A stretch of 64,000 nt of DNA from an uncultured Enterobacteriaceae bacterium (GCA_964438735.1 CAYTLW010000004.1:51953-115952); one strand, 5' to 3'. Counted from the stretch's first letter, positions 5,127 through 62,100 are shown. Numbers and translations are program-made. The notes: generated from the letters alone by a model not told the origin.

Positions 5127-5169
5127 CGATCTCCCGTTCCACGAGGAGTCGGATTCAACGCCTGCTGCA

Positions 5170-5345
5170 AGGTTTCCTGGCTCGCGGCTGTGCGACGCCC
5201 CGGAGGCCGTCGCCCGTCGCATCCGCCTTCCCAGTCGCCCCACGGGGGCCGCACCAGTGGCTCGTTGGATGCGCCTCACCGCTGACAGTGGCGGGCCCGC
5301 GCCGGATTCACACCGGCTTCCCTCCACAGCAAGCTCGACCACCAT
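5170..5345 (-). promoter_or_regulatory. Cobalamin (adenosylcobalamin) riboswitch in btuB leader
   Basis: Minus-strand RNA reads ...GAGGGAAGCCGGTGTGAATCCGGCGCGGGCCCGCCACTGTCAGCGGTGAGG...GAGCCACTGGTGCGGCCCCCGTGGGGCGACTGGGAAGGCGG...GAGCCAGGAAACCTTGCAG. This matches the conserved GGGAA / GGTG..AATCC / CCCGCCACTGT core. It also matches the B12 box (rAGYCMGgAgaCCkGCC as AGCCAGGAAACCTTGC). It ends about 45 nt upstream of the btuB ATG. Confidence 0.75.
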
Positions 5346-5409
5346 AGCGCAGCGGTGTTGCGCCGACCAGCCACTTGCGGCCGTGGCGGCGCCCGGGCAC
5401 CCTCCGCCC

Positions 5410-5976
5410 ATGAATGCGAGCGCTTTGAACCACCTGCACGAGATCGACTGGACCACCTGGCAGCCTGTGGATCTGGCGACCCTGCTGTTCGTGATCGATG
5501 GCGACCGGGTGTTGCTGATTCGCAAAAAGCGCGGCCTCGGCGCCGGCCTCATCAACGCGCCGGGCGGTCGCCTGGACCCGGGCGAGACTCCCCGTCAGGC
5601 GGCGGTGCGCGAGGTGCAGGAGGAGTTGGGAATCACCCCCCATTCGCCGACCTGGGGGGGCGAACATCGCTTCCAATTCCGCGACGGTTATTCGCTCTAC
5701 GTGCACGTATTCACCAGTGATCGTTATGACGGCGAGCCCACGGAGACCGATGAGGCGGTGCCGCTGTGGGTCCAGCGCGACGCGATGCCCTACGAGCAGA
5801 TGTGGGCCGACGACAGGTACTGGCTGCCGCTGCTGCTGGCCGGTCAGCGATTCTCGGGGCGCTATATCTTTGATGACCAGGAGATGGTCGCCATGCACAT
5901 CGCCGAGCTGCAGGACGGCGATCCCGACGGTGATGTGGGCGTGCGGCGACCTGAAGATGGTGCCGGCGCGGACTGA
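5410..5976 (+). CDS. NUDIX hydrolase (MutT-like)
   Basis: ATG at 5410 (MNASALNHL...). Nudix box GGRLDPGETPRQAAVREVQEELG is present. Divergent from the riboswitch/btuB leader. Confidence 0.8.
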   Translation: MNASALNHLHEIDWTTWQPVDLATLLFVIDGDRVLLIRKKRGLGAGLINAPGGRLDPGETPRQAAVREVQEELGITPHSPTWGGEHRFQFRDGYSLYVHVFTSDRYDGEPTETDEAVPLWVQRDAMPYEQMWADDRYWLPLLLAGQRFSGRYIFDDQEMVAMHIAELQDGDPDGDVGVRRPEDGAGAD

Positions 5977-26211: not shown

Positions 26212-28875
26212 CTACTTATACAACGCCCCGCCGGAATTCACCCGGGCGATGAACAGCCGAAAGCCGCCCGGGTTCGCGAGGCCGCCAAACGACTTGTTCG
26301 TATAGCCGCCAAACAGGATGTCACCGTTGAAGGTCATCTTGACCACGGCGCCGGCCGCGTTGCCGCCCATGGCCTGCCACTGCTTGTGCCAGAGCATCTG
26401 GCCGGACTTCTTGAACCAGGCCAGCTGCACGCCGTTGCTGCCGAAATTGCCGACGACGACCATGTTGCCTTCGGCGTCCATGTCCATGCCGTATCCGAAG
26501 TCGTCGGCCTTGGTGCCGAACTGCACCGAGCCAGGCAGCTCCTTGCCGGTCTTGTCCAGGTGCATCAAGTACATATCGCGGCCGCCCTTGCTGGGCTGGG
26601 GCTGCCAGAGCTTGCCCTTGGTCGAACCCAGCAGCCACAGCGTGCCGTCGGGATGTACGCGCAACTTGCGGCCCCAGTCGTCGGCGTTGGTGCCCATCTG
26701 CTTGAGCCAGAGCTGCTTGCCGGCGCCGTCGAAGGCGGTCACGAAGAGGTCAGAGCCGCCCTTATGCTTCTGACCGGCCAGGGGGTACTTGGCGCTACCG
26801 GTGGCGTACACGGCCTGGGATTTGTCCACCGCGATGCCTGTGACGCTGAGGCTGCCGGTGCTGTTGCCGAAGGTGGAGCGCCACTTCTTGGCGCCGGATT
26901 TGTCGTACCGGGCCACGTAGCCGACGTAGTGTTTTGAGGTCTTGAGGCCGTAACCGCCGGTGTAGACGTCGGTGCCGCCAGACGCTGTGGCGACGGACCA
27001 GGTCGACGCCCACGTGGTGGTCTTGTAGCTGTCGAACCAGACCTGCGTGGCGAACAACTGCTTGCCGTTGAGATCGAGCTTCTGGGTGTAGCCCGTCTGG
27101 GAGTTGCTGCCCGACTGCGGCTTGCCCTGTCCGGCCAGATAGACGTGCGAGCCCAGCACGCTCATGGTGCGCGGGATGTAGGAGTTGCCTGTGTAGTAGG
27201 CCTTGCTCAAGACGCTCTTGACGCCGTCGGGCTCGTAGCTCAGCAGCCGGGCCGGGTATTTGCTGGTCTGCAGGTCGCTCACGGCGACATAGACGTGGCC
27301 GTTTGGCGCCACACCCAAACCGGCTATGACCTTCTTGTTCAGCGACGTGTGTGCTTGGAAGTAGCGGGCGCCCTTCCAGCCGCAGCCATGGACCGCCTTG
27401 CTGGTGCACTTGCCGGTCTTGGCGTCGCAGCTGTCGGTGCTGCAGGGATTGTTGTCGTCGCAGGCCTTCATGGTGCCCTTGCAGGCGCCCTTGTCGCACT
27501 TGTCGGCGCTGGTGCACATGCTGCCGTCGTCGCAGCCGGGCGTGCCGGCGACCGGACTGGTCGTGCAGCCCTTGGCTTTATCGCAACTGTCGGTCGTGCA
27601 GGAATTGCCATCGTCGCAGACCTTGGTTTTGCCGCCGCCGCACTTGCCGGCCGTACAGGCCTTGTCGGTCATGCACATGTCGCCGTCTGCGCACGCCTTG
27701 CCGGCGGCGTTCTTGTGCACGCAGCCGGTCTTGGCGTCGCAGCTGTCGTCGGTGCAGTCGTTCTTGTCATCGCAGGTCTTGGGTTTGCCACTGCCGCATT
27801 GGCCGGTGGCGGGCACGCAGGCGGCCTCTGTGCAGGCATCGCCGCACTGCTTGGTGGTGCCGGCTGTGCACTTGCCGCCGGCGCAGACGTCGCCAGTGGT
27901 GCACTTATTGCCGTCCTCGCAGGCGGCGGTATTGGGCGTGTAGACGCAGCCCTTGGCCTTGTCGCAGGTGGCGTCCTTGCATCCCTTGGAGATGCAGGTC
28001 ATGGGGCTGCCAGATGTGCATTTGCCGGCTTTGCACACCTCGCCGACCGTGCAGGCACTGCCATCATCGCAGATCGGGCCAGCGCTGGTGGTGGGGTTGT
28101 CGATGATGCCATCGCAGTCGTTGTCGATGCCGTCGCAGATCTCCTTGCCGTCGCCTTCTGGCTTGCAGTCGGTCCACTTGCAACCGGGCTGATTGGCGCA
28201 GGCTCCGGCGTCCTTGCTGTCGGTGCACTGCGGGCCCTTGTCGCCGATCTGGCCGACACATGTGCCGGCCGTCCACAAGCAAACGGGCGCCTTGACGCTG
28301 GCGCACTGGGCGGCTGAATTCTTGGTGTAACAGGAGTTGACGAACAAGCACTTGGTACCAGCCCATTTGCAGCCCATGTAGTTGGCGATGTCGCAGTTCT
28401 TCTTGGTGTTGAGCTTGGGGCATTGCTTCTGGGCGGTGGGGTCCTTGGGCACGCATACGAAGCCTGCCAGCTTGCAGCCAACGGTGACCTGGCAGGTAGC
28501 GTGTTGGGCCTTGTCTTTGTAGATGCTGCACGACACGGAGCCCTGGCAGGAGAACTCCTTTGGCTGCGGGCCGGCATCGACGGGGCCGCTGTCGCTGGAC
28601 CCAGCGTCCCCGCCGCTCGAGTCGACAGCGCCGCCCGAATCGACGGCGCCGCCAACGTCAGCGGTCCCGCCGGCATCCACTGGACTGGTGCTGGTGTCGG
28701 CCTGGCCACCGCTATCAGGGGGGGTCGCGCCGTCGCTCGTCGCACCGTCTGCAGACGTCGTGTCGACGGTTCCGCCAGGAGAGGGCGGGTTGTCACTGCC
28801 ACAGGCACCGAGGGCCAGGGCGAGGGCGGCGAGCATGGCGCAAGGGCGCACGCCCCAGGAAGCTTGCGGGGTCAT
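26212..28875 (-). CDS. Secreted protein: Ser/Thr/Gly-rich linker, Myxococcus-type Cys-rich repeats, C-terminal SBBP beta-propeller repeats
   Basis: Signal MTPQASWGVRPCAMLAALALALGAC. It has about 10 CxDxxxCTxDxC modules (CDDKNDCTDDSCDAKTGC, CDDGNSCTTDSC...). The C-terminus has SBBP-like propeller segments (DVYTGGYG, SDLFVTAFDGAGKQLWLKQMG). Confidence 0.7.
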   Translation of the reverse strand: MTPQASWGVRPCAMLAALALALGACGSDNPPSPGGTVDTTSADGATSDGATPPDSGGQADTSTSPVDAGGTADVGGAVDSGGAVDSSGGDAGSSDSGPVDAGPQPKEFSCQGSVSCSIYKDKAQHATCQVTVGCKLAGFVCVPKDPTAQKQCPKLNTKKNCDIANYMGCKWAGTKCLFVNSCYTKNSAAQCASVKAPVCLWTAGTCVGQIGDKGPQCTDSKDAGACANQPGCKWTDCKPEGDGKEICDGIDNDCDGIIDNPTTSAGPICDDGSACTVGEVCKAGKCTSGSPMTCISKGCKDATCDKAKGCVYTPNTAACEDGNKCTTGDVCAGGKCTAGTTKQCGDACTEAACVPATGQCGSGKPKTCDDKNDCTDDSCDAKTGCVHKNAAGKACADGDMCMTDKACTAGKCGGGKTKVCDDGNSCTTDSCDKAKGCTTSPVAGTPGCDDGSMCTSADKCDKGACKGTMKACDDNNPCSTDSCDAKTGKCTSKAVHGCGWKGARYFQAHTSLNKKVIAGLGVAPNGHVYVAVSDLQTSKYPARLLSYEPDGVKSVLSKAYYTGNSYIPRTMSVLGSHVYLAGQGKPQSGSNSQTGYTQKLDLNGKQLFATQVWFDSYKTTTWASTWSVATASGGTDVYTGGYGLKTSKHYVGYVARYDKSGAKKWRSTFGNSTGSLSVTGIAVDKSQAVYATGSAKYPLAGQKHKGGSDLFVTAFDGAGKQLWLKQMGTNADDWGRKLRVHPDGTLWLLGSTKGKLWQPQPSKGGRDMYLMHLDKTGKELPGSVQFGTKADDFGYGMDMDAEGNMVVVGNFGSNGVQLAWFKKSGQMLWHKQWQAMGGNAAGAVVKMTFNGDILFGGYTNKSFGGLANPGGFRLFIARVNSGGALYK

Positions 28876-33082: not shown

Positions 33083-36000
33083 TCAACGGCGTTGGCGGAT
33101 GGCCCTCACGCGTCGACCGAGGTGTACCACGTAGATCAGCACCAGGCAGATCAAGGAGGCCGCGCCGGCCACATCGAGGCCGACGCCTGGGCCCGGATCC
33201 ACGATTGTGCCGAAGTAGTGTTTGGTCAGCTTGTAGTCGACCAGGGTGCTGACCAGCCCCATCCTGCTGGTGCCGAGCCAGATGGATGCGAACACCGTCA
33301 CGCCGGTCAACTGGAGCGCGGCGAGGCCGAAGCGCCCGCTGAACATGTCGGACCAGCCGGGCAGGAGCCAGCCGATGACGCGCGAGAGCGTGCGATCGAT
33401 GGCCCGGCTGCGTCTCCACAGTCGACGGAACAACCCTTCAGTCGGCCCACCCGGCGGCTGCGGTGAAGGCGGCGGCTCCGGGATGATTGGCAACGGCCGC
33501 ACGGGCAACCACAGCAGCGAGAGCAGGGCCACCGCCAGCGTCCAGATGCCCAGGGCGCTGGACAGGGTGCGGGCCGGGCTGATGGTTTCGCCCAGGTCGC
33601 CGCCGGCGACCCGGAAGGCGGCCTGGGTGTCGCCGCTGATCAATCCCGCCAGCGACTGGGCGACGGCCTGCCCGAAGTCCTGCGCCGGGTTGAGCAGGTT
33701 GCGCACGTCGTTGAGGGTGCAGCGGGCCCACAAGGGGCGATCCGGCCCGGTGCGTTCCATAGGCAGGCGATCGCGCCGCGGCAACGTCTCGGCGGCGGGA
33801 TTGCTGCCAGCGAGGCGATCGCGATTCCACGCTGCCGACTCGGCCCCTGGCCCGCTGCCAGCGGCGGCGCGTTCGTACCCTTGGCGCGCGGCGTCCCGAT
33901 CGCCGGCCTGTTCGTCCAGCAAGGCGAGGTTGTTGCGCGCCATGGCGCTATCCGGCCAGTTGGCCAGCAGCCGATCGAGGGTCTGCCGCGCGGCGTCCAG
34001 CTGGCCGCGGGTGTAGCGGCCCTCGGCCTGCAGGTTCAGCACCGAGGGGCTGTCGCCGCTGGTCTCCAGTCGCCGCTCGAGCACTTCCAGGCAACCCGGC
34101 GCGCCGGCGTGGCCCGCGGCCACCGTGAGCGAGGCGTTGGCGTTGCGCATCACCACGGTGACGTTGGCCGACAGGATCGCGGCGCTGAGCAGGCTGAGCA
34201 GGGCCAGACCGAAGACTGCGAGCCGCTGCGGCCGGGTGGCGTAGGTCGGGAAGGTATGGCGCAGGCGGTCCACCGGGTGTTCCAGGAAGGCCACCAGGCG
34301 CTGTCGGCGGGTGCGGAAGCCGCGCGCGTGCAGGGCGGCAAAACGCGTCTTGCGCGGCCGCCACCACATGGCGATGAGCAGGATGAACAGGATCATGGGC
34401 GCCGCAGCGGAGATGGGCAGGGCGATGTCCACGAGGCGGACCTGAAACGTGTTCAGCAGCAGCGCAGCGCCCAACGGCGCCGATTCGCGGATTCGACGGG
34501 CCACCAGGCCGTTGGTATCGGGTCGGCCCTGCTGCCGCAGCCAGGCGCCCCAACGCCGATAGAACTTGGGGTCGTACTCGATGAAGTCGGCGAAGGCCCG
34601 ACCGCTCTCGACCAGTTGCAAGGCCCGTTCGATCTTGCCCTGCTGCCACAGCTCGTCGCCCAGTTTGCGTAGGACGAACGCCGGATTGCCGATGAGGGAC
34701 GCGTTCAGCTCGCTGTTGACGCCGGCGATCTGGGCGGCCTCCGCGGCCTGATCGATCAGCTTGTCCGCCCGCCCTGCAAAGCCCTCCCGCTCGAGCATGG
34801 CCGCGATGCGCGTGCCATGCAGCGGCAGCATGTCAGCGCTGTTGGCGACCACGCGATCGGCGAGTTGCGCGCGCCGAGCAGAGTCGGCGTCTTTGCCCAG
34901 CAGCTGCAAGACCATCAGCGGGATCTCGGGATCGAGGGGGTCGTCCTTCGCCAGCGCGGCCACGGTTTCGGCGGCCAGGCGCTTCAACGCGGGATCGTCT
35001 CCGGCCTTGTCCTTGTCCACGCCTGCCCGAGCTGCGCCGGCCTCCAGGGCTTGTTTGCGTACATTCTGGAGCCACTTCGGTGCGGCCCAGCCGCTGCCCA
35101 CGCGGTCGTTGGCGAAGATGGGCTGCTCCGGACCGGCGCGGAAGCGCAGCAGGTGCACCACGCCCTGGTCGACCAGCGACCAGACGGCCACGACCAGGCG
35201 TCGTCGATCGTTGGGATCGGGCCAGCCGTGCAGCGCCACGCCGGGCAGCTTCTGGCGCGCCAGCACCCGGCCTGTCAAGCCATCGCGACGGAGCAGGAAG
35301 GCGCCCAGCCCGAACACGATGGAGCCGTCGGCGACCGGCACGGCGAGCTGGCTTCGTTCGCCATCGGGCGCCGCGGCCGTGCGCCAGCGCCGTTTGCCGG
35401 TGCGTCGATCCCAGGCCTCCCAGGCGCCGTCGGCGGTGCGGGACAGGCGCGGCGCATCCACCGGCAGACCCTGCCGCAGCGCACCAAAGGGTGGCTCCAG
35501 CAGGGCGAAAGGCGGTACGCCATCGGCGCAGCCACCGCCGGCAACCGTGGCCGTGACCTGGGCGGCCGGGTGCAGGGCGCAGATGGCGGCCCTGCCCAGG
35601 CGTGCAGACTCGGCGTCCTTTGCGGTTGGCTGGCCCCCTTCGCGCTGGATGGTGGCCAGGGCGTCGAGCACCGCAGGCACCGGATCGCCGGCCACGATCG
35701 CCTCGTGCAGCACCCGGCACAGGCGCGTGGACGAGCCCACAAAACCCTCGCCATGGCGCAGCCTGTCGCTCAGCGACGTGTTCTTGATGGCCGGTCGCTT
35801 CATCAGCAATCCGCGCATGGACGCCGAACCGTGCTCCTGAAGGGAGGACCGACAGAGCTGGCCGAAGAGTTGCTCCCAGCGGCCTTGTTGCCAGAGCAGC
35901 GTTCGTGTCGCCCGGCCGAGCAACTCCCCCCGAGCCACGGCACGCGGTCCCAGTTCGGCCACGGTCTCTCGGAAGTCGGCCAGCGCCCGGGTAGCGGCGA

Positions 36001-37825
36001 AGGCGTCATGGGTCGCCAGCGCCTGCCAGGCCTTGGTGGCCCGATGATCCAGCGCACCGATCATCTCCCGGCGCTTCAGCTCGGCCTGTTTCGTCGCGGT
36101 CACCTCCTCCAGGCCCTGCCAGATCAGCAGCGCCAGGGCGATCGCCACGACCGCGCCGATTCCGGCGCGCAATCGCCCCGAACCCAGGCGTCGTACGCCC
36201 ATGGCGGTGGTCTCGCAGCGGGGTCGATCGGCGTGTCGATGACCTTCGAGCAGGGCCAGTTGGGCGCTGGCCAGTCCGGCGTCGCCGCGCTCCAGGGCCT
36301 CTTCGGCAAAGTGGATGGCGGCCCGGGCCTGGCCGCGAGAGGCCGGCTCGTTATCTGCCCACAGGTGCAAGGCCTGCTCGTGTCGGGACAGGGCCCGCGC
36401 ATAGAGGCCATAGCGTTCTTCCATGGCCACTTCGCCAGCGACCAGGCTGGCCAGCAGGCGGTCGCCCTCGTCGGACAGGCGCAGGGATTCGGCGTTGCCG
36501 AGCCAGGTTCGCAGGGCGGCCAGGAACGCGGCCGCGTCGGCGAAACGGTCGGCGGGGTCGCGGGCCATGGCCTGACGACAGATGGCTTGCAGGGCGCTGG
36601 GTACGTCGTCGTCGTAGGTGGGCGGTTCGGCCCGGCTGGCCGCGTGCAGCACGTCCATCAGCTGCGCGCCCTTGTGCGGCGGCGCGCCGGTGATCACCTC
36701 GTGCAGCATGGCGCCCAGCTGGAAGACGTCTGTCCACGGGCCGATGTCCCGATTGCGCGCCTCGGCCTGCTCCGGGGCCATGTAGCAGGGCGTGCCCGCC
36801 GGCCCCGTCGCGTCGTCCTTGTGGGGGCCCAGCGGCTGCTCCGGCCGCGGCTCGCGTACATCCAGGGAGATGCCCCAGTCCATCACCATGGTCTCGCCGA
36901 AGTCGCCGACCATGATGTTGGCGGGCTTCAGGTCGCGATGGGCGATGCCACGCGAATGCGCAAAGGCGATGGCGTTGCAGACGCTGATCAAGACATCCAC
37001 ATGGCGCCGCTGATCCCAGCCCTCCGCGGCTTTCTTGTGGGCGTCGGTGCGCGGATGCAGCAGGTCGTGCCAGCTGTGGCCGCGGACCAGCTTCATGGCC
37101 AGGAAGACCTCGCCCTGACCGGTCTCGCCGAGCTCGTGCACCGGGATCACGTTGGGATGATCCAGGGCGCCGGTGACCAGGGCTTCGGCAACGAACTGCT
37201 CCCGAGCCAGACCGCCCCCTCGACCTGGGATCAGCGTCTTGACCGCCACGTCGCGACGCAGGCTGCCCTGGGTGGCGCGATAGACCACGCCCATGCCGCC
37301 GCGGCCGATCTCGTCCTGGAGTTCGTACTGCTGCATGCCCTCGGCGGCGGTTGGAGCGGCCGTGGAGGGCATGGTGGGGGCGGTGACGGGGGCTGCGAGG
37401 GTGTCCGTGTCCGTGGCTGCGACCGTGTCGGCGCCAGTGTCCGTGTCTGTGTCTGTGTCCGTGGCTGCGACCGTGTCCGCGCCGGTGTCCGTGTCTGTGT
37501 CCGTGTCTGTGTCCGTGGCGGCGACCGTGTCGGCGCCCGTATCTGTGTCTGCGACCGCGTCGGTTGCGGCGAGGGTTTCGTCGAAGGCCTGCTCGCCTGT
37601 GACCGGCCGGTGACGGGCGACGCCGGGACCGACCAGGGCCACCTGCTGGCGGCCCCTCAGGCGTGGACTTGTTGTAAAGGCGGCCTGTGGCAGGCCACTC
37701 AGGGCGGGTGGAGGGGCTTTTTTCGCCGGCGCCGGGCGATAGGCGGCGACCGTGGATGCGGCATCCCAGTCGGCATCGGCGCCGATGGTCTCCGCCCACA
37801 CCTGCTTGATCTCGGCCCGATTCAT
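33083..37825 (-). CDS. Multidomain Ser/Thr protein kinase (Pkn-type): (TD)n repeat N-terminus, kinase, helical/TPR region, PQQ-like propeller, C-terminal multi-TM region
   Basis: Kinase motifs GRGGMGVVYRA, VAVK, HRDLKPANIM, DWG and APE are present. The N-terminal TDTDTDTDTGADTVAA repeats are encoded by a tandem DNA repeat at about 37395..37565. The C-terminus has at least 5 hydrophobic helices. Confidence 0.8.
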   Translation of the reverse strand: MNRAEIKQVWAETIGADADWDAASTVAAYRPAPAKKAPPPALSGLPQAAFTTSPRLRGRQQVALVGPGVARHRPVTGEQAFDETLAATDAVADTDTGADTVAATDTDTDTDTDTGADTVAATDTDTDTDTGADTVAATDTDTLAAPVTAPTMPSTAAPTAAEGMQQYELQDEIGRGGMGVVYRATQGSLRRDVAVKTLIPGRGGGLAREQFVAEALVTGALDHPNVIPVHELGETGQGEVFLAMKLVRGHSWHDLLHPRTDAHKKAAEGWDQRRHVDVLISVCNAIAFAHSRGIAHRDLKPANIMVGDFGETMVMDWGISLDVREPRPEQPLGPHKDDATGPAGTPCYMAPEQAEARNRDIGPWTDVFQLGAMLHEVITGAPPHKGAQLMDVLHAASRAEPPTYDDDVPSALQAICRQAMARDPADRFADAAAFLAALRTWLGNAESLRLSDEGDRLLASLVAGEVAMEERYGLYARALSRHEQALHLWADNEPASRGQARAAIHFAEEALERGDAGLASAQLALLEGHRHADRPRCETTAMGVRRLGSGRLRAGIGAVVAIALALLIWQGLEEVTATKQAELKRREMIGALDHRATKAWQALATHDAFAATRALADFRETVAELGPRAVARGELLGRATRTLLWQQGRWEQLFGQLCRSSLQEHGSASMRGLLMKRPAIKNTSLSDRLRHGEGFVGSSTRLCRVLHEAIVAGDPVPAVLDALATIQREGGQPTAKDAESARLGRAAICALHPAAQVTATVAGGGCADGVPPFALLEPPFGALRQGLPVDAPRLSRTADGAWEAWDRRTGKRRWRTAAAPDGERSQLAVPVADGSIVFGLGAFLLRRDGLTGRVLARQKLPGVALHGWPDPNDRRRLVVAVWSLVDQGVVHLLRFRAGPEQPIFANDRVGSGWAAPKWLQNVRKQALEAGAARAGVDKDKAGDDPALKRLAAETVAALAKDDPLDPEIPLMVLQLLGKDADSARRAQLADRVVANSADMLPLHGTRIAAMLEREGFAGRADKLIDQAAEAAQIAGVNSELNASLIGNPAFVLRKLGDELWQQGKIERALQLVESGRAFADFIEYDPKFYRRWGAWLRQQGRPDTNGLVARRIRESAPLGAALLLNTFQVRLVDIALPISAAAPMILFILLIAMWWRPRKTRFAALHARGFRTRRQRLVAFLEHPVDRLRHTFPTYATRPQRLAVFGLALLSLLSAAILSANVTVVMRNANASLTVAAGHAGAPGCLEVLERRLETSGDSPSVLNLQAEGRYTRGQLDAARQTLDRLLANWPDSAMARNNLALLDEQAGDRDAARQGYERAAAGSGPGAESAAWNRDRLAGSNPAAETLPRRDRLPMERTGPDRPLWARCTLNDVRNLLNPAQDFGQAVAQSLAGLISGDTQAAFRVAGGDLGETISPARTLSSALGIWTLAVALLSLLWLPVRPLPIIPEPPPSPQPPGGPTEGLFRRLWRRSRAIDRTLSRVIGWLLPGWSDMFSGRFGLAALQLTGVTVFASIWLGTSRMGLVSTLVDYKLTKHYFGTIVDPGPGVGLDVAGAASLICLVLIYVVHLGRRVRAIRQRR

Positions 37826-37925
37826 GGCTGCCCTTGCCGCTTTTGTCGCCAGGGGCCAAGCCTACTTCAGGGCAGGGCGTGGTGTCATGGCTGGCAAGCG
37901 CTCGATGGGGTCTTGTCCTGGGCGC

Positions 37926-39119
37926 TCAGGTCAGCAGCTGCAATCGTCCGCGCAGGAAGTCCCTGGCGACCACGCCGACGTGAACTTCGTCGGGGCCATC
38001 GGCGATGCGGGCGGCGCGGGCGTGTCGGTACCAGCCGGCGAATGGCATGTCCTCGCTGTAGCCGAGTGCGCCGTGCATCTGGATGGCGTCGTCGAGCACG
38101 TCGCAGAGCATGCGGGCGCAGTGCAACTTGGCCATGGACGAATAGCCGCGGGCCGCGGCGGGACCGTCTCGCTCGAGCACTCTGGCGCAATGCCAGGTCA
38201 ACAGGTCGCCGGCGTGGATGGCGGTGGCGCCATTGGCGATGAACTGTTGGACCAGCTGGTGTCTGGCCAGTGGCCGGCCGAAGCTCTGCCGTTCATTGAC
38301 GTAGGCGCGGCAGAGGTCCAGCGCCCGATCTGCCAGACCGAGCCAGCGCATGCAGTGGGTCAGGCGCGCCGGGATGAGCCTCGCCTGGGCCAGCTCGAAA
38401 CCCTGGCCGACCTCGCCGAGCAGGTTGTCGGTGCCCACCTGCACGTCGTTGAACTGCAGCTCCGCCTCTCGATGCACGAGCAGCGGCTCTGCCATGACGC
38501 CCACGGTGCGCACATGCTCGATGCCTGGAGATTGCCGGTCGACCGCGAAGAGGGTGGCACCTCGCCGCCGATCGTCCGAGGTGCGGGCCATGACGATCAG
38601 CATGGACGCCCGGCCGCCACCGGTGGCGAACCATTTGCGGCCGTTGATGCGCCAGCCCTCGCCGTCGGCGGTGGCCGTGGTCTGCAGGTTGTGGGGGTCT
38701 GCACCGGCACCTGGGGCGGGTTCGGTCATGCAGAATGCGCTGGTGATCTCGCCATCGCACATGGGCTTGAGCCAGCGCTGCCGCACCGCGGGTCCGGCCA
38801 CGCGCAGGAGCAGGTCCATGTTGCCCTGGTCGGGCGCGTCACAGTTGAAGACCCGTGGGCCCACGAGCGAACGGCCCATCTCGCGAAACAGGGCGCACAT
38901 GCCGATCACGCCCAGGTCCAGTCCGCCGTAGTCGGCCGGCAGGTGAGGTGCCCACAGACCTGCCGCCCGGGCGCCGACCTGCAGCTGACGCAGGGTGGTG
39001 TCCTCGCCGCGCCGATCCTCGGCGATGATGCGCGCCTCGTTGGTCAGCACGTGGCCGTCCATGAACTCGCGCACCTGGCGCCGCGTCCGCTGCAATGACT
39101 CCGACAGATTCCAGGGCAT
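37926..39119 (-). CDS. Acyl-CoA dehydrogenase family protein (ACAD10/11-type by context)
   Basis: ACAD fold motifs are present (TEPAPGAGADP, WINGRKWFATGG, GALGYSEDMPFAGWYRHARAARIADGPDEV). It lies 1 nt downstream of the 100-aa gene. Confidence 0.85.
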   Translation of the reverse strand: MPWNLSESLQRTRRQVREFMDGHVLTNEARIIAEDRRGEDTTLRQLQVGARAAGLWAPHLPADYGGLDLGVIGMCALFREMGRSLVGPRVFNCDAPDQGNMDLLLRVAGPAVRQRWLKPMCDGEITSAFCMTEPAPGAGADPHNLQTTATADGEGWRINGRKWFATGGGRASMLIVMARTSDDRRRGATLFAVDRQSPGIEHVRTVGVMAEPLLVHREAELQFNDVQVGTDNLLGEVGQGFELAQARLIPARLTHCMRWLGLADRALDLCRAYVNERQSFGRPLARHQLVQQFIANGATAIHAGDLLTWHCARVLERDGPAAARGYSSMAKLHCARMLCDVLDDAIQMHGALGYSEDMPFAGWYRHARAARIADGPDEVHVGVVARDFLRGRLQLLT

Positions 39120-39120
39120 G

Positions 39121-39423
39121 TCAGGGACTCCTTTGTCCGCCTTCGATGTGCTCGCTCAAGTCGAATCGGGGATTGGCCACGGCCAGTTGTTGGCGCAACC
39201 AGCGGGCGATGGCCTCGGGATCCTTGTCGTCCACCGCGGTGGATTCCAGCCCCAATCCTGCGCCGACCTGCTGCAGCACACTGGCCGCAACAAGCAGTCG
39301 AAAGCGCAGCCCGGCGTCCTGCACCGCGGGCCTGACATCGGCCATCAGGAAGCGCGCCACCCCCGCCAGCAGGGTGGGGTCGTCGGGGAATGGCGCAATC
39401 GCTTCGGTCGGCTCTGCACTCAT
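39121..39423 (-). CDS. Small conserved hypothetical protein (100 aa) between phosphotransferase and ACAD genes (possibly the DUF6285-type partner)
   Basis: ATG at 39423 overlaps the TGA of the phosphotransferase as ATGA. MSAEPTEAIAPFPDDPTLLAGVARFLMADVRPAVQD... Its stop lies 1 nt before the ACAD ATG. Confidence 0.55.
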   Translation of the reverse strand: MSAEPTEAIAPFPDDPTLLAGVARFLMADVRPAVQDAGLRFRLLVAASVLQQVGAGLGLESTAVDDKDPEAIARWLRQQLAVANPRFDLSEHIEGGQRSP

Positions 39424-40469
39424 GGCTTCCTCCAGGCGGGTACACCGGTGCGAATCAGCCGCATGGCCTCCCACTCCATCTCCACCACGCGTCGTCCGAT
39501 GGCCAGGTATTCCAGATCGAGCGCCTTGCCCGACAGGTAGCGCATGGACTGCTGCACGGCACCTACGGCCCAGCGCGCGTTGCCCATCACCTCCCACCAA
39601 TGCAGCCGGCGCTCGTCGACACGCACGCCAGCGGCCGCTTCGTAGGCCGCCAGGAAGGTGGCGCGGTCGCCGAATCCGCCGACCGGCTGGTCCAGCACGC
39701 CAAATCGCCAGTCGCGCACACAGATCCAGGACAGGTCCTCGGCGCGGCTGCCCCAATGGGCGAATTCCCAGTCCAGGATGCCGTGCAACCCGCTTTCGCC
39801 GACCATGAAGTTGCCCGTGCGGAAGTCGCCGTGCAGCAGCACATGCTCTTCCGCGGCCGGCGCATTATCCGCCAGCCACCGGTTGAGCCAGCGCAGGGCG
39901 GGGCGTCGGCTCGGCAACTGGCCCAGGTTCGCGTCCAGGTCGTTCAGCGCGGCCGCTGCCGGATCGGTGCCAGGCGCCTCGCCGGCGAACAGCTGGGGCC
40001 CATCGTGAGGGCCGATGCTGTGGATCCGGGCCAGTTCTTCGGCCAGCACCGGGCCGAGCGTCTGCCGTGCCTCTGCCAGCTTCGGGTCGCCGACCACCTT
40101 GCGGCCGATGGCGACCCCGTCCACCCAGGGCATGAAGTAGGCCGAGGCGCCGGGACGGACGAGGTCCTCGGCGAGATGCTGCGCCGCCGGGGTGCGCACG
40201 CCGGCCGCCACCGCGGCGTTGATGACCGGCGCCTCCTGGCGTCTGGCGATGCTGCCCATCAGGGCGCTGCTGGCGTCCGAGCGCAGCACGAAACGCCGGC
40301 TGGTGGCGTCTTCGTAGACCACATCGACGGCGAAGTTCTCCTGGCATGCACCGCCAGCGAGCGGGCGCAATTCCACAGTGCTGACCGCGTCTTCCGACAC
40401 CGCACGCAGGTGCTCGAGCACGCGCTGTTGCACTTGTCCGAGGTTGTCTGCGAGTTTGGCTGCCGTCAT
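39420..40469 (-). CDS. Phosphotransferase-family protein (APH/aminoglycoside-phosphotransferase-like kinase fold)
   Basis: Real start MTAAKLADN at 40469 (ATG verified). The upstream part of the 588-aa track ORF is antisense to the hydratase gene. APH motifs HGDFRTGNFMV and DWEFAHWG are present. Confidence 0.8.
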   Translation of the reverse strand: MTAAKLADNLGQVQQRVLEHLRAVSEDAVSTVELRPLAGGACQENFAVDVVYEDATSRRFVLRSDASSALMGSIARRQEAPVINAAVAAGVRTPAAQHLAEDLVRPGASAYFMPWVDGVAIGRKVVGDPKLAEARQTLGPVLAEELARIHSIGPHDGPQLFAGEAPGTDPAAAALNDLDANLGQLPSRRPALRWLNRWLADNAPAAEEHVLLHGDFRTGNFMVGESGLHGILDWEFAHWGSRAEDLSWICVRDWRFGVLDQPVGGFGDRATFLAAYEAAAGVRVDERRLHWWEVMGNARWAVGAVQQSMRYLSGKALDLEYLAIGRRVVEMEWEAMRLIRTGVPAWRKP

Positions 40470-40487
40470 CGACCCAGGAGAGTGAAC

Positions 40488-41231
40488 ATGAGCGTTCGTG
40501 TCAACCATGAAGGACCCGTGACCGTGGTCACGATCGACCGACCCGACCGCCGCAACGCCGTCGATCGGGCCACCGCCGAGGGACTGGCGGACGCTTTCCG
40601 GGCGTTCGAGGCTGACGACAATGCGGCGGTCGCCATCCTGACCGGTGCCGGGCAGACGTTCTGCGCCGGGGCCGACCTGAAGGCCATAGCAGCCGGGGCG
40701 CCCAATCGTGTGGCGCCAGACGGCGACGGCCCCATGGGGCCCACGCGCATGGAGTTGAGCAAGCCGGTCATCGCCGCGGTCGAAGGACACGCCGTGGCCG
40801 GTGGGTTGGAGTTGGCCTGCTGGTGCGACCTGAGGGTGGTGGCGAGCGATGCCGTGTTCGGCGTCTTCTGCCGCCGATGGGGCGTGCCGCTCATCGATGG
40901 CGGCACGGTCCGGCTGCCCCGACTGGTCGGCATGAGTCAGGCGCTGGACATGATCCTGACCGGGAGGGCCGTCGGCGCCGAAGAGGCCCTGCAGATGGGC
41001 CTGGCCAACCGCGTGGTGGCGACTGGACAAGCCCTGGCGGAGGCGGTGAAGCTGGCCGGCGAGGTGGCCGCCTTTCCGCAGATGGCCATGCGTGGCGACC
41101 GCGCCAGTGCGCGTCAGCAATGGTCGCTCAGCGAGCGCGACGCCCTGGCCAACGAGCTGGTGCACGGCGAGGCAGCCATGCGTCACGAGGCGGTGGCAGG
41201 CGCCCGACGATTTCGCGGAGATGCCACATGA
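40488..41231 (+). CDS. Enoyl-CoA hydratase/isomerase (crotonase family)
   Basis: ATG at 40488 (MSVRVNHEGPVTVVTIDRPDRRNAVD). Crotonase oxyanion-hole motifs TGAGQTFCAGADLK and AAVEGHAVAGGLELACWCDLRV. Confidence 0.85.
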   Translation: MSVRVNHEGPVTVVTIDRPDRRNAVDRATAEGLADAFRAFEADDNAAVAILTGAGQTFCAGADLKAIAAGAPNRVAPDGDGPMGPTRMELSKPVIAAVEGHAVAGGLELACWCDLRVVASDAVFGVFCRRWGVPLIDGGTVRLPRLVGMSQALDMILTGRAVGAEEALQMGLANRVVATGQALAEAVKLAGEVAAFPQMAMRGDRASARQQWSLSERDALANELVHGEAAMRHEAVAGARRFRGDAT

Positions 41232-42613
41232 TCCGCAGCGAACGCATCCTCATTCTCGGCCTCGGCGGCATTGGTTACTACCTCGCCAAACGTCTGGCGC
41301 ACGACGGCCATGCCATCACAGCCATCGAGTCCGACGCCGAGACCGTGCTGCGGGCCGATGCCGACATCGACGCCCGCACGGTGCACGGCAACGCGCTGAC
41401 CTTTTCGTGTTGGAAGGGAGTCGCCGGTGAGTCTTTCGACTACCTGATCGCCGTCACCGACAGCGACGCCGTCAACATCACCGCGTCGCTGATCGCCCAT
41501 CGCTGCGGCGTGCAGCAGAAGATCGCCCGCATCCGCTCCCTGGAGCTCTGGCGCCCCGACGCCCTGCTTCGCAAGGAAGACCTGCACATCGACCTGATGA
41601 TCCGCCCGGCCGAACTCACCGCCCTGGAGATCGCCCGCCTGCTCGAGGTCCGCTCGGGCAACATGGTCATCGACATCGATGATGGCGAGATGCAGGTGCT
41701 GGAGATCCCGGTCACCGAGAGCTCTCCCCTGTGCCGCAAGACGCTCATCGAGGCCGCGCAATTGCACGACGCCTTCCGCTTCCGCATCGTGGCCATCGCC
41801 CGTGGCATCCAGACCATCATCCCCGGCGGACACGACGTCATCCTGCCCAACGACCACATCTTCGTCCTGGCGCACCAGGCCAAGCTGCCCGATCTCATGG
41901 CCCTGGCAGGGCTGTCCGACCAGCGACGCCATCGGGTGATGATCATCGGCGGTGGATTGATCGGTCAGCGTACGGCGCAGCTGCTCGAGCAGACGCACCC
42001 GGTCACCCTGATCGAGCGCGACGAGAAGCGGGCCGAAGAGCTGTCCTGCCTGCTCGACAAGACCCAATGCCTGCATGGGGACGGCGCCGACGCCGAGACG
42101 CTGATTCAGGCCGGGCTGTTGGAAGCCGACACCATCATCACCGCCACCAGCGACAACGAGACCAACATCATGACCGGTGTGCTGGCCAAGCATCTGCTGC
42201 GCACCCACGGCGATGGCGGCGATGGCGACGGCAAGACCATCGTGCTGGTCAAACGAGAGGAGTACGTGGCCCTGGCCTCGTCCATGGGCGCCGACATCGT
42301 GCTCAACAGCAAGGTCCTGGCCGGCAACGAGATCCTCAAACACATCCGCCGCGGTCAGCTGCTGGCGGTGGCCCACCTGCACGGCTGTGACGCCGAGGTC
42401 CTGGAGCTGGTGGCGGAGCCAGACGCGCCCATCACGCGCCGGCCGTTGCAGGATGTTTCAGGGCTGAAGGGTCGAATCCTGATCGGCGGCGTGTATCGAG
42501 AAGGCGTCTGGCGGATTGCGGTCGGATCGACGCGTATTGCGGCTGGCGAAAAGGTGATCGCGATCTGTTCATGTCACGATCAGCCACACTTGCAGCGGCT
42601 GTTCCTGAGCTGA
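41228..42613 (+). CDS. trkA: Trk system potassium uptake protein TrkA (two TrkA-N/TrkA-C units)
   Basis: ATGA overlap with the hydratase gene. Rossmann motifs ILILGLGGIGYYLAKRL and VMIIGGGLIGQ, with two RCK_C segments. Confidence 0.85.
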   Translation: MIRSERILILGLGGIGYYLAKRLAHDGHAITAIESDAETVLRADADIDARTVHGNALTFSCWKGVAGESFDYLIAVTDSDAVNITASLIAHRCGVQQKIARIRSLELWRPDALLRKEDLHIDLMIRPAELTALEIARLLEVRSGNMVIDIDDGEMQVLEIPVTESSPLCRKTLIEAAQLHDAFRFRIVAIARGIQTIIPGGHDVILPNDHIFVLAHQAKLPDLMALAGLSDQRRHRVMIIGGGLIGQRTAQLLEQTHPVTLIERDEKRAEELSCLLDKTQCLHGDGADAETLIQAGLLEADTIITATSDNETNIMTGVLAKHLLRTHGDGGDGDGKTIVLVKREEYVALASSMGADIVLNSKVLAGNEILKHIRRGQLLAVAHLHGCDAEVLELVAEPDAPITRRPLQDVSGLKGRILIGGVYREGVWRIAVGSTRIAAGEKVIAICSCHDQPHLQRLFLS

Positions 42614-59131: not shown

Positions 59132-62100
59132 ATGAACGGTCGTGGTTGGGGCGCAGCGCATTGGTTCGTTGGCACCAGGTTCGTCAGCACGTGGTGCATC
59201 GTCCTGGCAGCTGCGCTGGCAGCCGGCGGTTGCGAAGCGCCCGTGGAGACGACCGACGAACCCGCCGATACCACGACCGGCGGCGGTGAAGACGCCATCG
59301 TGGACGCCACCGTGGCCGACCAGGCCAGCACCGGCGGCTGCAAATCCGACGACGACTGCGAGGCCGACGCGCCCGTCTGCGACACAGCGTCTGGCAAATG
59401 TGAAGGCTGCACCAAGGACGACCAATGTGACGCCGATCGCCACTGCCTGGACGGCAAGTGCCCCGCGGATGTGTGCAAGAAGGGCGAAAAGAAGTGCGAC
59501 GGCCCCGGCAAGGTCGCCCGTTGCGCCGACAATGGCGGCGCCTTCGACCCCACTCCCTGCGGCGACAAGGAGATCTGCGAGGACGGCAACTGCCTCAAGG
59601 TGGTCTGCAAAGCCGACAGCAAGAAGTGCGAGGACAACGGCGTGGCGACCTGCAACAAGCTCGGCACCGCCTGGGGCGAGGCCACCAAATGCAGCGACAC
59701 CCAGACCTGCGCCGCCGGTGTCTGCCAGGATCACGACTGCAAACCGGCCAGCACCAAGTGCGAGAACGCGTCCATCCTGACCTGCCAGGAGGACGGGCTG
59801 GGTTGGAAGACCACCGCCTGCAAAGATGGCAGCGATGGCGGCGCGGCGCAGTGGTGCGCAGACGTCGAGGGCACGCCCACGTGCCAGGATCAGACCTGCC
59901 AACCCACCCAGACGGCCTGCAAGGACGGCATCGCGGTGGTCTGCAAGGATGACGGCCTAGGCACCACCGTGGTCGAGGACTGCACCAAGAAGGATCCCGA
60001 CGGCGGCCCCGGCAAGACCTGCATCTCGGGCAAGTGTGTCTCGCTCAACTGCGTGCCCAAAAGCACCAAATGCGCCGGCAAGAACCTGGTCACCTGCAAG
60101 GATGATGGCCTCGGCGTGACCACCAAGTCCTGCGGCGCCCAGATGGGCTGCGAGGACGGCAAGTGCATGCCCATCATCTGCCTGGCCACCAGCGAATTCT
60201 GCGACGGCAAGGTGGCCAAGAAGTGCAACCTCTTCGGCACCAGCGCGACCGTGACCGACGACTGCCCCAAGGCCGACAAGACCTGCTCCAAGGGCAAGTG
60301 CGTCGAGTACGTGTGCAAGCCCGGCGCCATCAGCTGCGGCGCGGGCGGCGGCCAGGTGCAGACCTGCAACGCCGACGGGCTGTCCTACAAGGCCAAGAAC
60401 TGCACTGGCGGCACCACCTGCGTCAAGGACACCTGCAAACCGGTCATCTGCACCCCCGATTCGATGTTCTGCAAGGGCGCCGAGGTCAAGAAGTGCGATG
60501 CAACTGGCACCAGCAGCGCCACCGACGCCACCTGCGCCAAGGACAAGGTCTGCCTGCAGGGCAAGTGCGTGCCCAAGGTCTGCGACGCCGGCGAGCTCAA
60601 GTGCAACGGCCTCAAGGCGACCCAGCAGTGCAAACCCAGCGGGCTGGGCTGGACCGACAAGAGCTGCGCGGACAAGACCGCATGTGACAAGGGCCAATGC
60701 CTGCCCCAGGTCTGCAGCCCGTCGGCCCTGCAATGCGACGAGGGCAAGGCCAACAAGTGCGACGCCAAGGGCTTGAAGTGGGCGCTGGCGGGCGACTGCA
60801 AATCCAAGGGCCAGAACTGCATCGCCGGCAAGTGCGTCGACTATGTCTGCAAGGCGGGCGCCAAGAAGTGCGACAAGGGCAAACTGGCCACCTGCGCCAA
60901 GAGCGGCATGTCCTGGAGCCAGGCGACCTGCGGCAAGGACACCATCTGCGATGCGGGCTCCTGCGAGCCCCTGATCTGCACGCCCAAGCAGAAGAAATGC
61001 GCCAACAACAAGGCCATGGTCTGCAACGACCTGGGCACGGTCTCCAAGCTCGTATCCGACTGCACCAAGAGCAAGCAGAACTGCGTCAAGGGCGCCTGCG
61101 TCGACTTCGTCTGCAAGGCCAAGACCAGCAAATGCGAGGCTGGCGTGCGCATGATCTGCGCCGATGACGGCATGGCCTGGAACAATGCGGCCTGCGGCAA
61201 GGGCACCATCTGCGAGGCGGGCGCGTGCAAGAACGTCGTCTGCGAGGCCAAGAAGGCCTTCTGCAAGGGCCACCTGGTGCAGCAATGCAACGACCTGGGC
61301 ACGGCGGCCAAAGATGGCGACGACTGCAAGGCCAAGGGCAAGGCCTGTGTCGCCGGCAAGTGCGTCGACCTGCTCTGCAAGCCGGGCGCGCTCAGCTGCA
61401 AATCCGGCAAACTGCGGACCTGCAACGCCGACGGTCTCGGCTGGACGGCCAAGGATTGCGCGGCGGGCACCGCGTGTGTGAGCGGCGTGTGCAAGACCGT
61501 CATCTGCAAAGCCGACCAGCTCGCCTGCAAGGGCAGCGTGCTGCAGACCTGCGATGCCACCGGCACCGCCATCGCCAAGACCGTCGACTGCGCCGCCGAC
61601 AAGAAGAAGTGCTCGGCCGGCAAGTGCGTCGCGGCCATCTGCAAGGCCGGCACCACCACCTGCCAGAGCGGCCAGCTGGCCACCTGCGACGCCGGCGAAC
61701 TGTCCTGGAACAAGCAGTCCTGCGGCGTCGGCAAGGCGTGCGATGGCGGCAAATGCCTGGCTGTCATCTGCACGCCGAACAAGGCAACCTGCAAGGTGCG
61801 GCAGGCCTACAAGTGCAACGCCACCGGCACCGCCAATCCGCTGCTGACCGACTGCAAGAAGCTGGACAAGGCCTGCGTCAACGGCGAGTGCAAGCCGCTG
61901 CTCTGCAAGCCGGGGGCCGTCAAATGTGACGGCATCAAGCTGGCCACCTGCAATCTCGACGGGCTCACCTGGAAGAGCGCCGACTGCGCCAAGGGCAAGG
62001 CCTGCGCGGGCGCCAAGTGCGTCGCTGTGGCCTGCAAAGCCAACGAGAAGTCCTGCGACGGCTTCAACGCCATGTTGTGCAACGCCAGCGGGACCAAGAA

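Follow-up and report, generated by a model that had tools for sequence, protein, structure and literature searches.

A predicted LvaABC-type module for 4-hydroxyacyl-CoA catabolism, with a divergent EchA5-like crotonase gene, in a metagenomic contig

Known 4-hydroxyacyl-CoA pathways and the locus compared with them

Both in Pseudomonas and in mammals, the conversion of 4-hydroxyacyl-CoA by way of 4-phosphoacyl-CoA to enoyl-CoA is an established pathway, to which the locus described here adds no new principle. The locus comprises four genes at positions 37926-41231 of a 64,000-nucleotide stretch of DNA from an assembly labeled as an uncultured Enterobacteriaceae bacterium (GCA_964438735.1, CAYTLW010000004.1:51953-115952); this whole stretch is called the window below. 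Three of the genes, on the minus strand, encode a kinase of the aminoglycoside phosphotransferase (APH) fold, a protein of 100 amino acids (aa) and an acyl-CoA dehydrogenase (ACAD), and the fourth, divergent from them, encodes a protein of the crotonase fold. The minus-strand genes of this metagenome contig appear, with a probability of roughly 0.75, to be a module of the LvaABC type that would bring 4-hydroxyacyl-CoAs into beta-oxidation.

The bacterial form of the pathway is the LvaA/LvaB/LvaC core described in 2017 in the levulinate operon (lvaABCDEFG plus lvaR) of Pseudomonas putida KT2440. As PMC6692424 summarizes Rand et al. (2017), a pull-down showed the P. putida protein LvaB (12 kDa) to bind LvaA, LvaA and LvaB are both required for growth on levulinate, and the two together convert 4-hydroxyvaleryl-CoA to 4-phosphovaleryl-CoA. 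The core was linked to mammalian ACAD10 and ACAD11 in 2024-25, so that a split bacterial ACAD10/11, as which the sequence-only reading presented this locus, is already known under the names LvaA, LvaB and LvaC (PMC6692424, PMC11342911, PMC12440821); the domain set and the relationship named in that reading were borne out by the tests of the ACAD and the kinase given below. ACAD10, ACAD11 and LvaC are set apart from other ACADs by a catalytic Asp (D753 of mouse ACAD11), by an essential HCMR motif (H634...R637) and by an upstream Arg, R626 of mouse ACAD11, that has been proposed to hold the 4-phosphate (Rashan et al., PMC12440821).

For comparison, the KT2440 operon was represented by the annotated L085 operon of P. 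aeruginosa p12939-PER. The window resembles this P. putida-type operon in its order of kinase, small subunit and ACAD, in the 4-nt overlap between the kinase gene and the small gene, in the assignment of both small proteins to the DUF6285 family and in the catalytic Asp of the ACAD. It differs in the length of the small subunit (100 aa versus 118 aa, the central region being deleted), in the linkage of a divergent EchA5-like crotonase gene and in host lineage, which is Myxococcota-like and not of the Pseudomonadota. The remaining components of the operon, namely lvaD (a short-chain dehydrogenase/reductase, SDR), lvaE (an acyl-CoA synthetase), lvaR (a sigma-54 regulator) and lvaFG (acetate-type transport), are all present in L085, and a Pfam scan found none of them among the likely-gene open reading frames (ORFs) of the 64-kb window.

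Relative to ACAD10 and ACAD11 (PDB 8v3u, 8v3v, 2wbi), the proteins of the window keep the residues corresponding to R626, H634, R637 and D753 of mouse ACAD11, with the same proposed chemistry, and a kinase domain that is detectably homologous (profile E 2e-15). The differences are that the two domains are fused in ACAD10 and ACAD11 but are separate polypeptides in the window, accompanied by a small subunit without counterpart in ACAD10/11; that the window kinase is distant, reading HGDFR and not HYDxK in its catalytic loop; and that the module has no HAD domain. The kinase and ACAD orthologues of Burkholderia pseudomallei are likewise stand-alone proteins; they carry out both steps of ACAD10 in vitro and can substitute there for its domains (Paquay et al. 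2024, PMC11342911). No small subunit is mentioned in the purification and assay of the Burkholderia kinase (PMC11342911). This kinase and the Cupriavidus pinatubonensis protein of PDB entry 3dxp, which is the best profile match (72 bits) for the kinase family of the window, are ACAD10-type kinases with up to 51% identity to the kinase domain of ACAD10, whereas the window kinase belongs to an LvaA-like branch in which a DUF6285 gene nearly always comes after the kinase gene.

Homologies and diagnostic residues of the minus-strand proteins

The ACAD (397 aa; 37926..39119, minus strand; Pfam Acyl-CoA_dh_N, _M and _1 all above cut-off) is predicted to be an enzyme dependent on flavin adenine dinucleotide (FAD) that eliminates phosphate from 4-phosphoacyl-CoA. 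Its best matches among solved structures are mouse and human ACAD11 (E 4e-72, 246 bits, ~36% identity), followed by a mycobacterial relative (227 bits), whereas the solved structures of ordinary short-, medium- and long-chain, isovaleryl- and glutaryl-CoA dehydrogenases score at most 161 bits, at least 85 bits below ACAD11. It is 41% identical to LvaC of the annotated lva operon (E 8e-91), and the segment ARLTHCMRWLG is identical in both. The residues R247-x7-H255-C-M-R258 match R626, H634 and R637 of mouse ACAD11 column for column, and D374, within ADGPDEVH, aligns with D753 (the LvaC counterpart reads YDGPSEVH), such that a catalytic Asp (xDGPxEVH) replaces the canonical catalytic Glu (YEGTSE). 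Both the R-x7-HCMR motif and the Asp motif are present in all kinase-adjacent ACADs of the related loci and missing from the ordinary ACADs of the same loci. In a neighbor-joining tree, LvaC, mouse ACAD11 and the ACADs encoded beside the kinase in Thermus, Massilia and Leptospira share a clade with the ACAD of the window; the other ACADs of these loci, which have the LYEGTSE Glu motif and lack HCMR, lie outside that clade. The claim of the sequence-only reading that this protein is of the ACAD10/11 type thus stands, by score (246 versus at most 161 bits) and by placement with ACAD11 and LvaC, not with ordinary ACADs, and the active-site substitutions that it had proposed to look for are all present (R247, H255-C-M-R258 and D374).

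The kinase (349 aa; 39420..40469, minus strand; Pfam PF01636 (APH), E 1.5e-28) is predicted from its homologies to be the catalytic subunit of a 4-hydroxyacyl-CoA kinase. In a translated search against annotated plasmids it matched the phosphotransferase of the complete lvaR-lvaABCDEFG operon of P. aeruginosa plasmid p12939-PER, with 35.4% identity across 98% of the window kinase (E 4e-46, 175 bits); on that plasmid the next gene is named by NCBI 'lvaB: 4-hydroxypentanoyl-CoA kinase subunit LvaB'. When solved structures were searched with the single sequence, only distant APH-fold structures were matched; the kinase domain of ACAD11 was not found, and the ACAD10-type 3dxp scored 27 bits, versus 175 bits for LvaA in the plasmid search. 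When the same structures were searched with a profile built from 24 homologues, the matches were 3dxp (72 bits; labeled as a 'putative acyl-CoA dehydrogenase' of Cupriavidus, in fact an ACAD10-type kinase), Rv3168 (3ats among the structures; 65 bits) and the kinase domain of ACAD11 (60 bits, the E 2e-15 given above), with macrolide, aminoglycoside and hygromycin kinases at 32 bits or less and no homoserine kinase among the matches. No resistance or homoserine-kinase model of NCBIfam came near its cut-off. These scores (60-72 versus at most 32 bits) agree with the earlier assignment of the APH-fold kinase to relatives of the ACAD10/11 kinase domain and not to antibiotic or homoserine kinases. 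The residues R63 (beta3 Arg), E79 (alphaC Glu), H213-x-D215, N220 and D233-W-E (the metal-binding motif) are invariant in the 24 homologues and are also found in LvaA, and their counterparts are essential in a crystallized bacterial kinase of the ACAD10 type (PMC13596139). The catalytic loop reads H213-G-D215-F-R-T-G-N220, and its motif accordingly varies from HGDFR in this kinase to HRDYR in LvaA and HYDxK in the ACAD10 type.

The small protein (100 aa; 39121..39423, minus strand) is, by the evidence of profile and position, a shortened homologue of the LvaB/DUF6285 kinase subunit. In Pfam and NCBIfam scans it had no match, Pfam DUF6285 (PF19802) not appearing even at E 10; a word-indexed homology search returned the self-match alone; and a direct BLASTP comparison with LvaB was not significant (E 0.19), for which reason its homology to LvaB rests on the profile and the position of the gene. 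The kinase gene of related loci is followed by one for a protein of 118-150 aa belonging to Pfam DUF6285, a family that is also matched by the annotated LvaB of L085 (E 4.8e-24) and by the syntenic proteins of L002, L003 and L086. A profile of 72 positional homologues, the annotated LvaB among them, matched the 100-aa protein at E 8.4e-22 (73 bits), the next-best ORF of the window being at E 3.3. The match is in two pieces, at positions 5-55 and 110-134 of the hidden Markov model: the protein keeps the ~50 conserved residues of the N-terminus (P..TLL.AVA.FL...VRP...D..L.FR.L.AA) and the ~25 of the C-terminus, which include the motif L..L.V.NPRFD, and lacks ~55 central positions of the LvaB family. 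This internal deletion would account for the failure of the Pfam model, and the protein is for that reason called a shortened homologue instead of a typical member. The closest relative of the module, L005, has an equally short small protein (97 aa), which argues that the central deletion is a trait of the lineage and not an assembly error, and we infer that the shortened subunit is still functional.

Searched against solved structures, a profile of the DUF6285 alignment gave weak matches (all E >=0.07), for the most part with proteins that are coiled-coil or of designed helical type, and no solved structure was matched significantly for the family. A single-sequence AlphaFold model of the 100-aa protein has four helices at low confidence (predicted local distance difference test, pLDDT, 59.6). 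Although the NCBI annotation names the protein encoded at 9020-9376 of L085 as LvaB, no model of NCBIfam release 20.0 matches it; Pfam still lists the family of LvaB as a domain of unknown function, and DUF6285 was not mentioned in the literature searched.

Gene arrangement, conserved neighbors and the divergent crotonase

With a G+C content of ~68%, the window gives noisy raw lists of ORFs, and four ORFs were considered in 37926-41231, of which those of the kinase, the ACAD and the crotonase have clear family matches in Pfam and the 100-aa ORF has none. The tetranucleotide ATGA at 39423-39420 is common to the stop of the kinase gene and the start of the small gene (a 4-nt overlap), and a single base (39120) separates the stop of the small gene (39123-39121) from the ATG of the ACAD gene (39119). 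Shine-Dalgarno-like sequences for the small gene (GGAGGA, 39433-39428) and for the ACAD gene (AAAGGAG, 39134-39128) lie within the respective preceding genes. The start codons of the kinase and crotonase genes are divergent and 18 bp apart; this intergenic spacer (40470..40487) holds the Shine-Dalgarno sequence of the crotonase gene (AGGAG, 40477-40481) and is too short for two promoters. A scan of 37600-41500 found no sigma-70-like promoter and no terminator on the relevant strands, and a repeat search of the module found nothing beyond short repeats at chance level. The same four genes were called independently on the source metagenome contig (ENA ERZ23498660, scaffold_180, 144.5 kb), so that the arrangement first described from the sequence (four genes, ATGA overlap, 1-nt gap and crotonase gene divergent at 18 bp) was confirmed in every detail by this call and by reading of the DNA.

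A scan of one genome per species yielded at least 595 relatives of the kinase, and the best 80 of these were examined for synteny; they belong mostly to genomes of Myxococcota, either metagenome-assembled (MAGs) or from isolates (Archangium, Minicystis rosea, Polyangiaceae), and to Leptospiraceae. A DUF6285-like ORF directly follows the kinase gene in 77 of the 80 loci, often with an overlap of 1-4 nt. A gene for an LvaC-type ACAD comes after it on the same strand in 46 of the 76 loci with contigs that reach far enough, and in seven loci, mostly of Leptospiraceae, the ACAD gene is instead just upstream. A crotonase of the same type (59-73% identical) is encoded divergently upstream in 23 of 75 loci and downstream of the ACAD gene in the same operon in L027, L049 and L069, for 26 linked loci in all; the spacers of the divergent arrangement range from 14 to 318 bp. 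All four genes are found together in fifteen loci. The four-gene linkage is far beyond chance and is conserved across phyla, the gene order being kept in four of them. The closest relative of the module (L005, CAZLMW010000012.1) has a kinase that is 64% identical, an ACAD that is 76% identical and a crotonase that is 73% identical. It is labeled 'uncultured Enterobacteriaceae bacterium', and because all other relatives are Myxococcota or Leptospiraceae this label is probably a placeholder.

Other loci show the core, or its kinase-DUF6285 pair, in further contexts. On plasmid pTT27 of Thermus thermophilus the order is SDR, MaoC, thioesterase, ligase, SDR, ACAD, kinase, DUF6285 and histidine phosphatase, the last four (LvaC-type ACAD to histidine phosphatase family gene) lying at 2796-5923 of the locus from strain HB8 (L087); the same phosphatase neighbor has been reported in P. 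citronellolis, which is said to lack lvaB (PMC6692424). On a Massilia plasmid the core lies among genes for ACADs, SDR, thiolase, ligase and hydratases. In an Archangiaceae MAG (L002, 9043-9649), a 70-aa ORF and an opposite-strand gene of the YjbQ family stand between the kinase gene and the DUF6285 gene, a break in their otherwise tight coupling. On plasmid p2 of Cupriavidus pinatubonensis (L088, 3866-5274), the kinase-DUF6285 pair has no LvaC-type ACAD gene with it and stands between genes of the DapA-like and indolepyruvate:ferredoxin oxidoreductase families.

The crotonase-fold protein (247 aa; 40488..41231, plus strand; Pfam ECH_1, E 1.3e-44) passes the NCBIfam equivalog NF006108 with 396 bits against a cut-off of 273 bits. 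Its best matches in the PDB are full-length alignments with the mycobacterial EchA5 group (3qka, 4qfe, 3r9q, 4z0m; E ~1e-88), which take in the segment FGVFCRRWGVPLIDGGT. In an alignment with what we take to be the sequence and the catalytic residues of human ECHS1 (the E144, E164 pair of the rat and human enzymes), the first catalytic Glu is kept (E108, in GGLELA), and the position presumed to hold the second is occupied by Cys128, within the family-conserved segment FGVFCRRWG. Given this Cys, activity as a hydratase or as an isomerase is equally conceivable, and the protein is predicted to act in one of these ways on an enoyl-CoA product. The suggestion that a hydratase handles the product of the module was therefore right as to a crotonase-fold partner linked by synteny; the partner is EchA5-like, with Cys at the second catalytic position, and could be an isomerase or a hydratase of atypical kind. 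We know of no substrate of EchA5. No link of EchA5 to an LvaABC-type module was found in the literature searched, and EchA5 is described as dispensable in Mycobacterium tuberculosis (PMC3220763). Preparations of LvaC and of ACAD10 give some 3-hydroxyacyl-CoA, and whether this is an intrinsic activity is unclear (Paquay et al., PMC11342911); with the source of this product unclear, a dedicated partner enzyme is plausible.

Predicted pathway, competing explanations and surroundings of the module

In the first step of the pathway predicted for the module, a complex of the APH-fold kinase and the LvaB-like subunit would phosphorylate the 4-hydroxyl group of 4-hydroxyacyl-CoA with ATP. In the second, the LvaC-type flavoenzyme would bind the resulting 4-phosphoacyl-CoA through the Arg/His cluster of R247, H255 and R258 and, with D374 as base and FAD passing through a cycle of no net redox change, eliminate phosphate to leave enoyl-CoA, which the EchA5-like crotonase would in the third step hydrate or isomerize for entry into ordinary beta-oxidation. 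The analysis contributes to this scheme the gene arrangement and its coupling, the homologies, the diagnostic residues and the synteny across phyla, and the literature contributes the kinase activity of LvaAB, the elimination activity of LvaC, the interaction of LvaA with LvaB and the essential HCMR motif (PMC6692424, PMC11342911, PMC12440821); the substrate, its chain length and the role of the crotonase are matters that we infer. The 4-nt overlap of the kinase and small genes, which the window shares with the lva operon of Pseudomonas and with many further loci, fits the reported complex of LvaA with LvaB (PMC6692424). With lvaD, lvaE, lvaR and the transporter genes absent, a pre-formed 4-hydroxy acid, for example one derived from gamma-lactones or oxidized lipids, is probably the substrate, and not levulinate. 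The homology to LvaABC supports the bacterial 4-hydroxy-acid pathway that had been suggested from the sequence, in the form of a generic module for 4-hydroxyacyl-CoAs and not of a levulinate operon.

Several points weigh against assigning this function to the locus. The second catalytic Glu of canonical hydratases, as taken from ECHS1, is absent from the crotonase; the small subunit, which is ~55 central positions short and is missed by the Pfam model, could be impaired by the shortening; and no acyl-CoA synthetase, lactonase or regulator that would show the source of the substrate was found among the scanned ORFs of the 64-kb window. Pairs of kinase and DUF6285 genes also occur without an ACAD gene, as in Cupriavidus, which means that they are not tied to this chemistry, and the two-subunit kinase may serve other pathways too. 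Finally, kinase domains of the ACAD10 type are reported to phosphorylate alkylglycerols as well (2026 preprint, PMC13596139).

If the chemistry is the same but the substrate is another hydroxyacyl-CoA, whether branched, cyclic, derived from secondary metabolism or hydroxylated at another position, the crotonase with one catalytic Glu could be an isomerase. The lack of a substrate-defining context, the conservation of a crotonase partner that is not a canonical hydratase, and the occurrence of kinase-DUF6285 pairs in quite different contexts all speak for this explanation, as does the rich lipid and polyketide metabolism of Myxococcota. It is nevertheless unlikely, considering that the residues of ACAD11 that bind phosphate and catalyze elimination from 4-phosphoacyl-CoA are all conserved and that the members characterized to date all act on 4-hydroxyacyl-CoAs (PMC11342911, PMC12440821).

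It is somewhat less likely that the locus is a true levulinate operon with the physiological role of that of P. putida, its substrate being 4-hydroxyvaleryl-CoA derived from levulinate. Homology of the three core proteins to LvaA, LvaB and LvaC, a shared gene order and the shared overlap speak for this reading, but the identities to LvaA and LvaC are only 35-41%, and neither lvaR, nor lvaD for the SDR that reduces levulinyl-CoA, nor lvaE for the CoA ligase, nor lvaFG was found among the scanned ORFs of the window (operon content according to PMC6692424). The closest relatives, moreover, are from Myxococcota and Leptospiraceae, and the linked gene encodes a crotonase, not an SDR or a ligase.

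Very improbable is a kinase that acts mainly on lipid alcohols, for example as a 1-O-alkylglycerol kinase, with the linkage to the ACAD gene being secondary. Myxobacteria do make ether lipids. Alkylglycerol kinase activity has been reported for ACAD10 and several prokaryotic homologues (preprint PMC13596139), and the beta3 Arg, alphaC Glu, catalytic Asp, Asn and DWE of that report are present in the window kinase; however, the activity was demonstrated for kinases with the HYDxK loop, whereas the loop reads HGDFR in the window kinase and HRDYR in LvaA, and in single-sequence searches the window kinase scored 175 bits with LvaA and 27 bits with the ACAD10-type 3dxp. The coupling of the kinase gene to genes for an LvaB-like protein and an ACAD with the phosphate site, together with the crotonase link, points to acyl-CoA substrates, and there are no ether-lipid genes nearby. 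As for an ordinary beta-oxidation cluster of ACAD and hydratase beside an antibiotic- or homoserine-type phosphotransferase, to which the generic labels 'acyl-CoA dehydrogenase', 'aminoglycoside phosphotransferase' and 'enoyl-CoA hydratase' would lend themselves, it and an antibiotic-resistance role for the kinase are effectively refuted by an ACAD that has the ACAD10/11 signature in place of the catalytic Glu and lies outside the ordinary ACADs, themselves at least 85 bits lower, by a kinase profile with antibiotic kinases at 32 bits or less against 60-72, by the NCBIfam scan, in which no resistance or homoserine model came near its cut-off, and by a gene order conserved across four phyla.

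Under the assignment to LvaABC, what is modestly new is the lineage, the recognition of LvaB in DUF6285, a natural short form of LvaB and a recurrent EchA5-type partner with a non-canonical active site. The LvaA-LvaB-LvaC core is common well beyond the Proteobacteria in which it was first described, extending to Myxococcota, Leptospiraceae and Thermus; Pfam DUF6285 is the LvaB kinase subunit; the natural deletion variant, which keeps only the two ends of LvaB, is a useful guide in mapping the interaction surface; and the orphan EchA5-type crotonase, as a recurrent partner, offers a testable lead to the substrate of EchA5. A bolder proposal, which we regard as doubtful, is that a dedicated EchA5-type crotonase, with one of the two canonical catalytic Glu residues, has been recruited to the LvaABC core of Myxococcota and related groups, and that the kinase works in this lineage with a minimal LvaB that lacks the central third. 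Were the crotonase an obligatory isomerase or an unusual hydratase, either the product of the bacterial LvaC-type enzymes would not be plain 2-trans-enoyl-CoA (a 3-enoyl-CoA or a dienoyl-CoA might be formed) or the substrate would be a non-standard hydroxy-lipid. The orphan EchA5 family would then also gain its first substrate, and the smallest functional part of LvaB would be defined.

The genes that surround the module, among them those for a 1580-aa Ser/Thr kinase, a GDSL lipase, a TrkA-like protein and a hybrid histidine kinase, are unrelated to lipid catabolism. The TrkA-like gene (41228-42613, plus strand, 461 aa) has a start that overlaps the stop of the crotonase gene (ATGA, 41228-41231) and looks translationally coupled to it; as no other fetched locus has it beside the module, it was not counted as belonging to the system. 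On the other side, the gene for the Ser/Thr protein kinase (33083-37825, minus strand), which has tetratricopeptide (TPR) repeats, starts 100 nt downstream of the ACAD gene and contains at 37401-37572 a 12/48-nt tandem repeat that encodes (Thr-Asp)n / GADTVAA near the N-terminus. Elsewhere in the window are two Cys-rich 'Dicty_CTDC' repeat proteins, one of them also with a MopE-type metal-binding motif, and an ORF with NHL repeats, longer than 1633 aa, that extends past the end of the window; the coordinates listed for these three are 26212-28875 (minus strand), 52857-54854 (plus strand) and 59099-64000 (plus strand). The AT skew is strongly positive from ~52 kb on.

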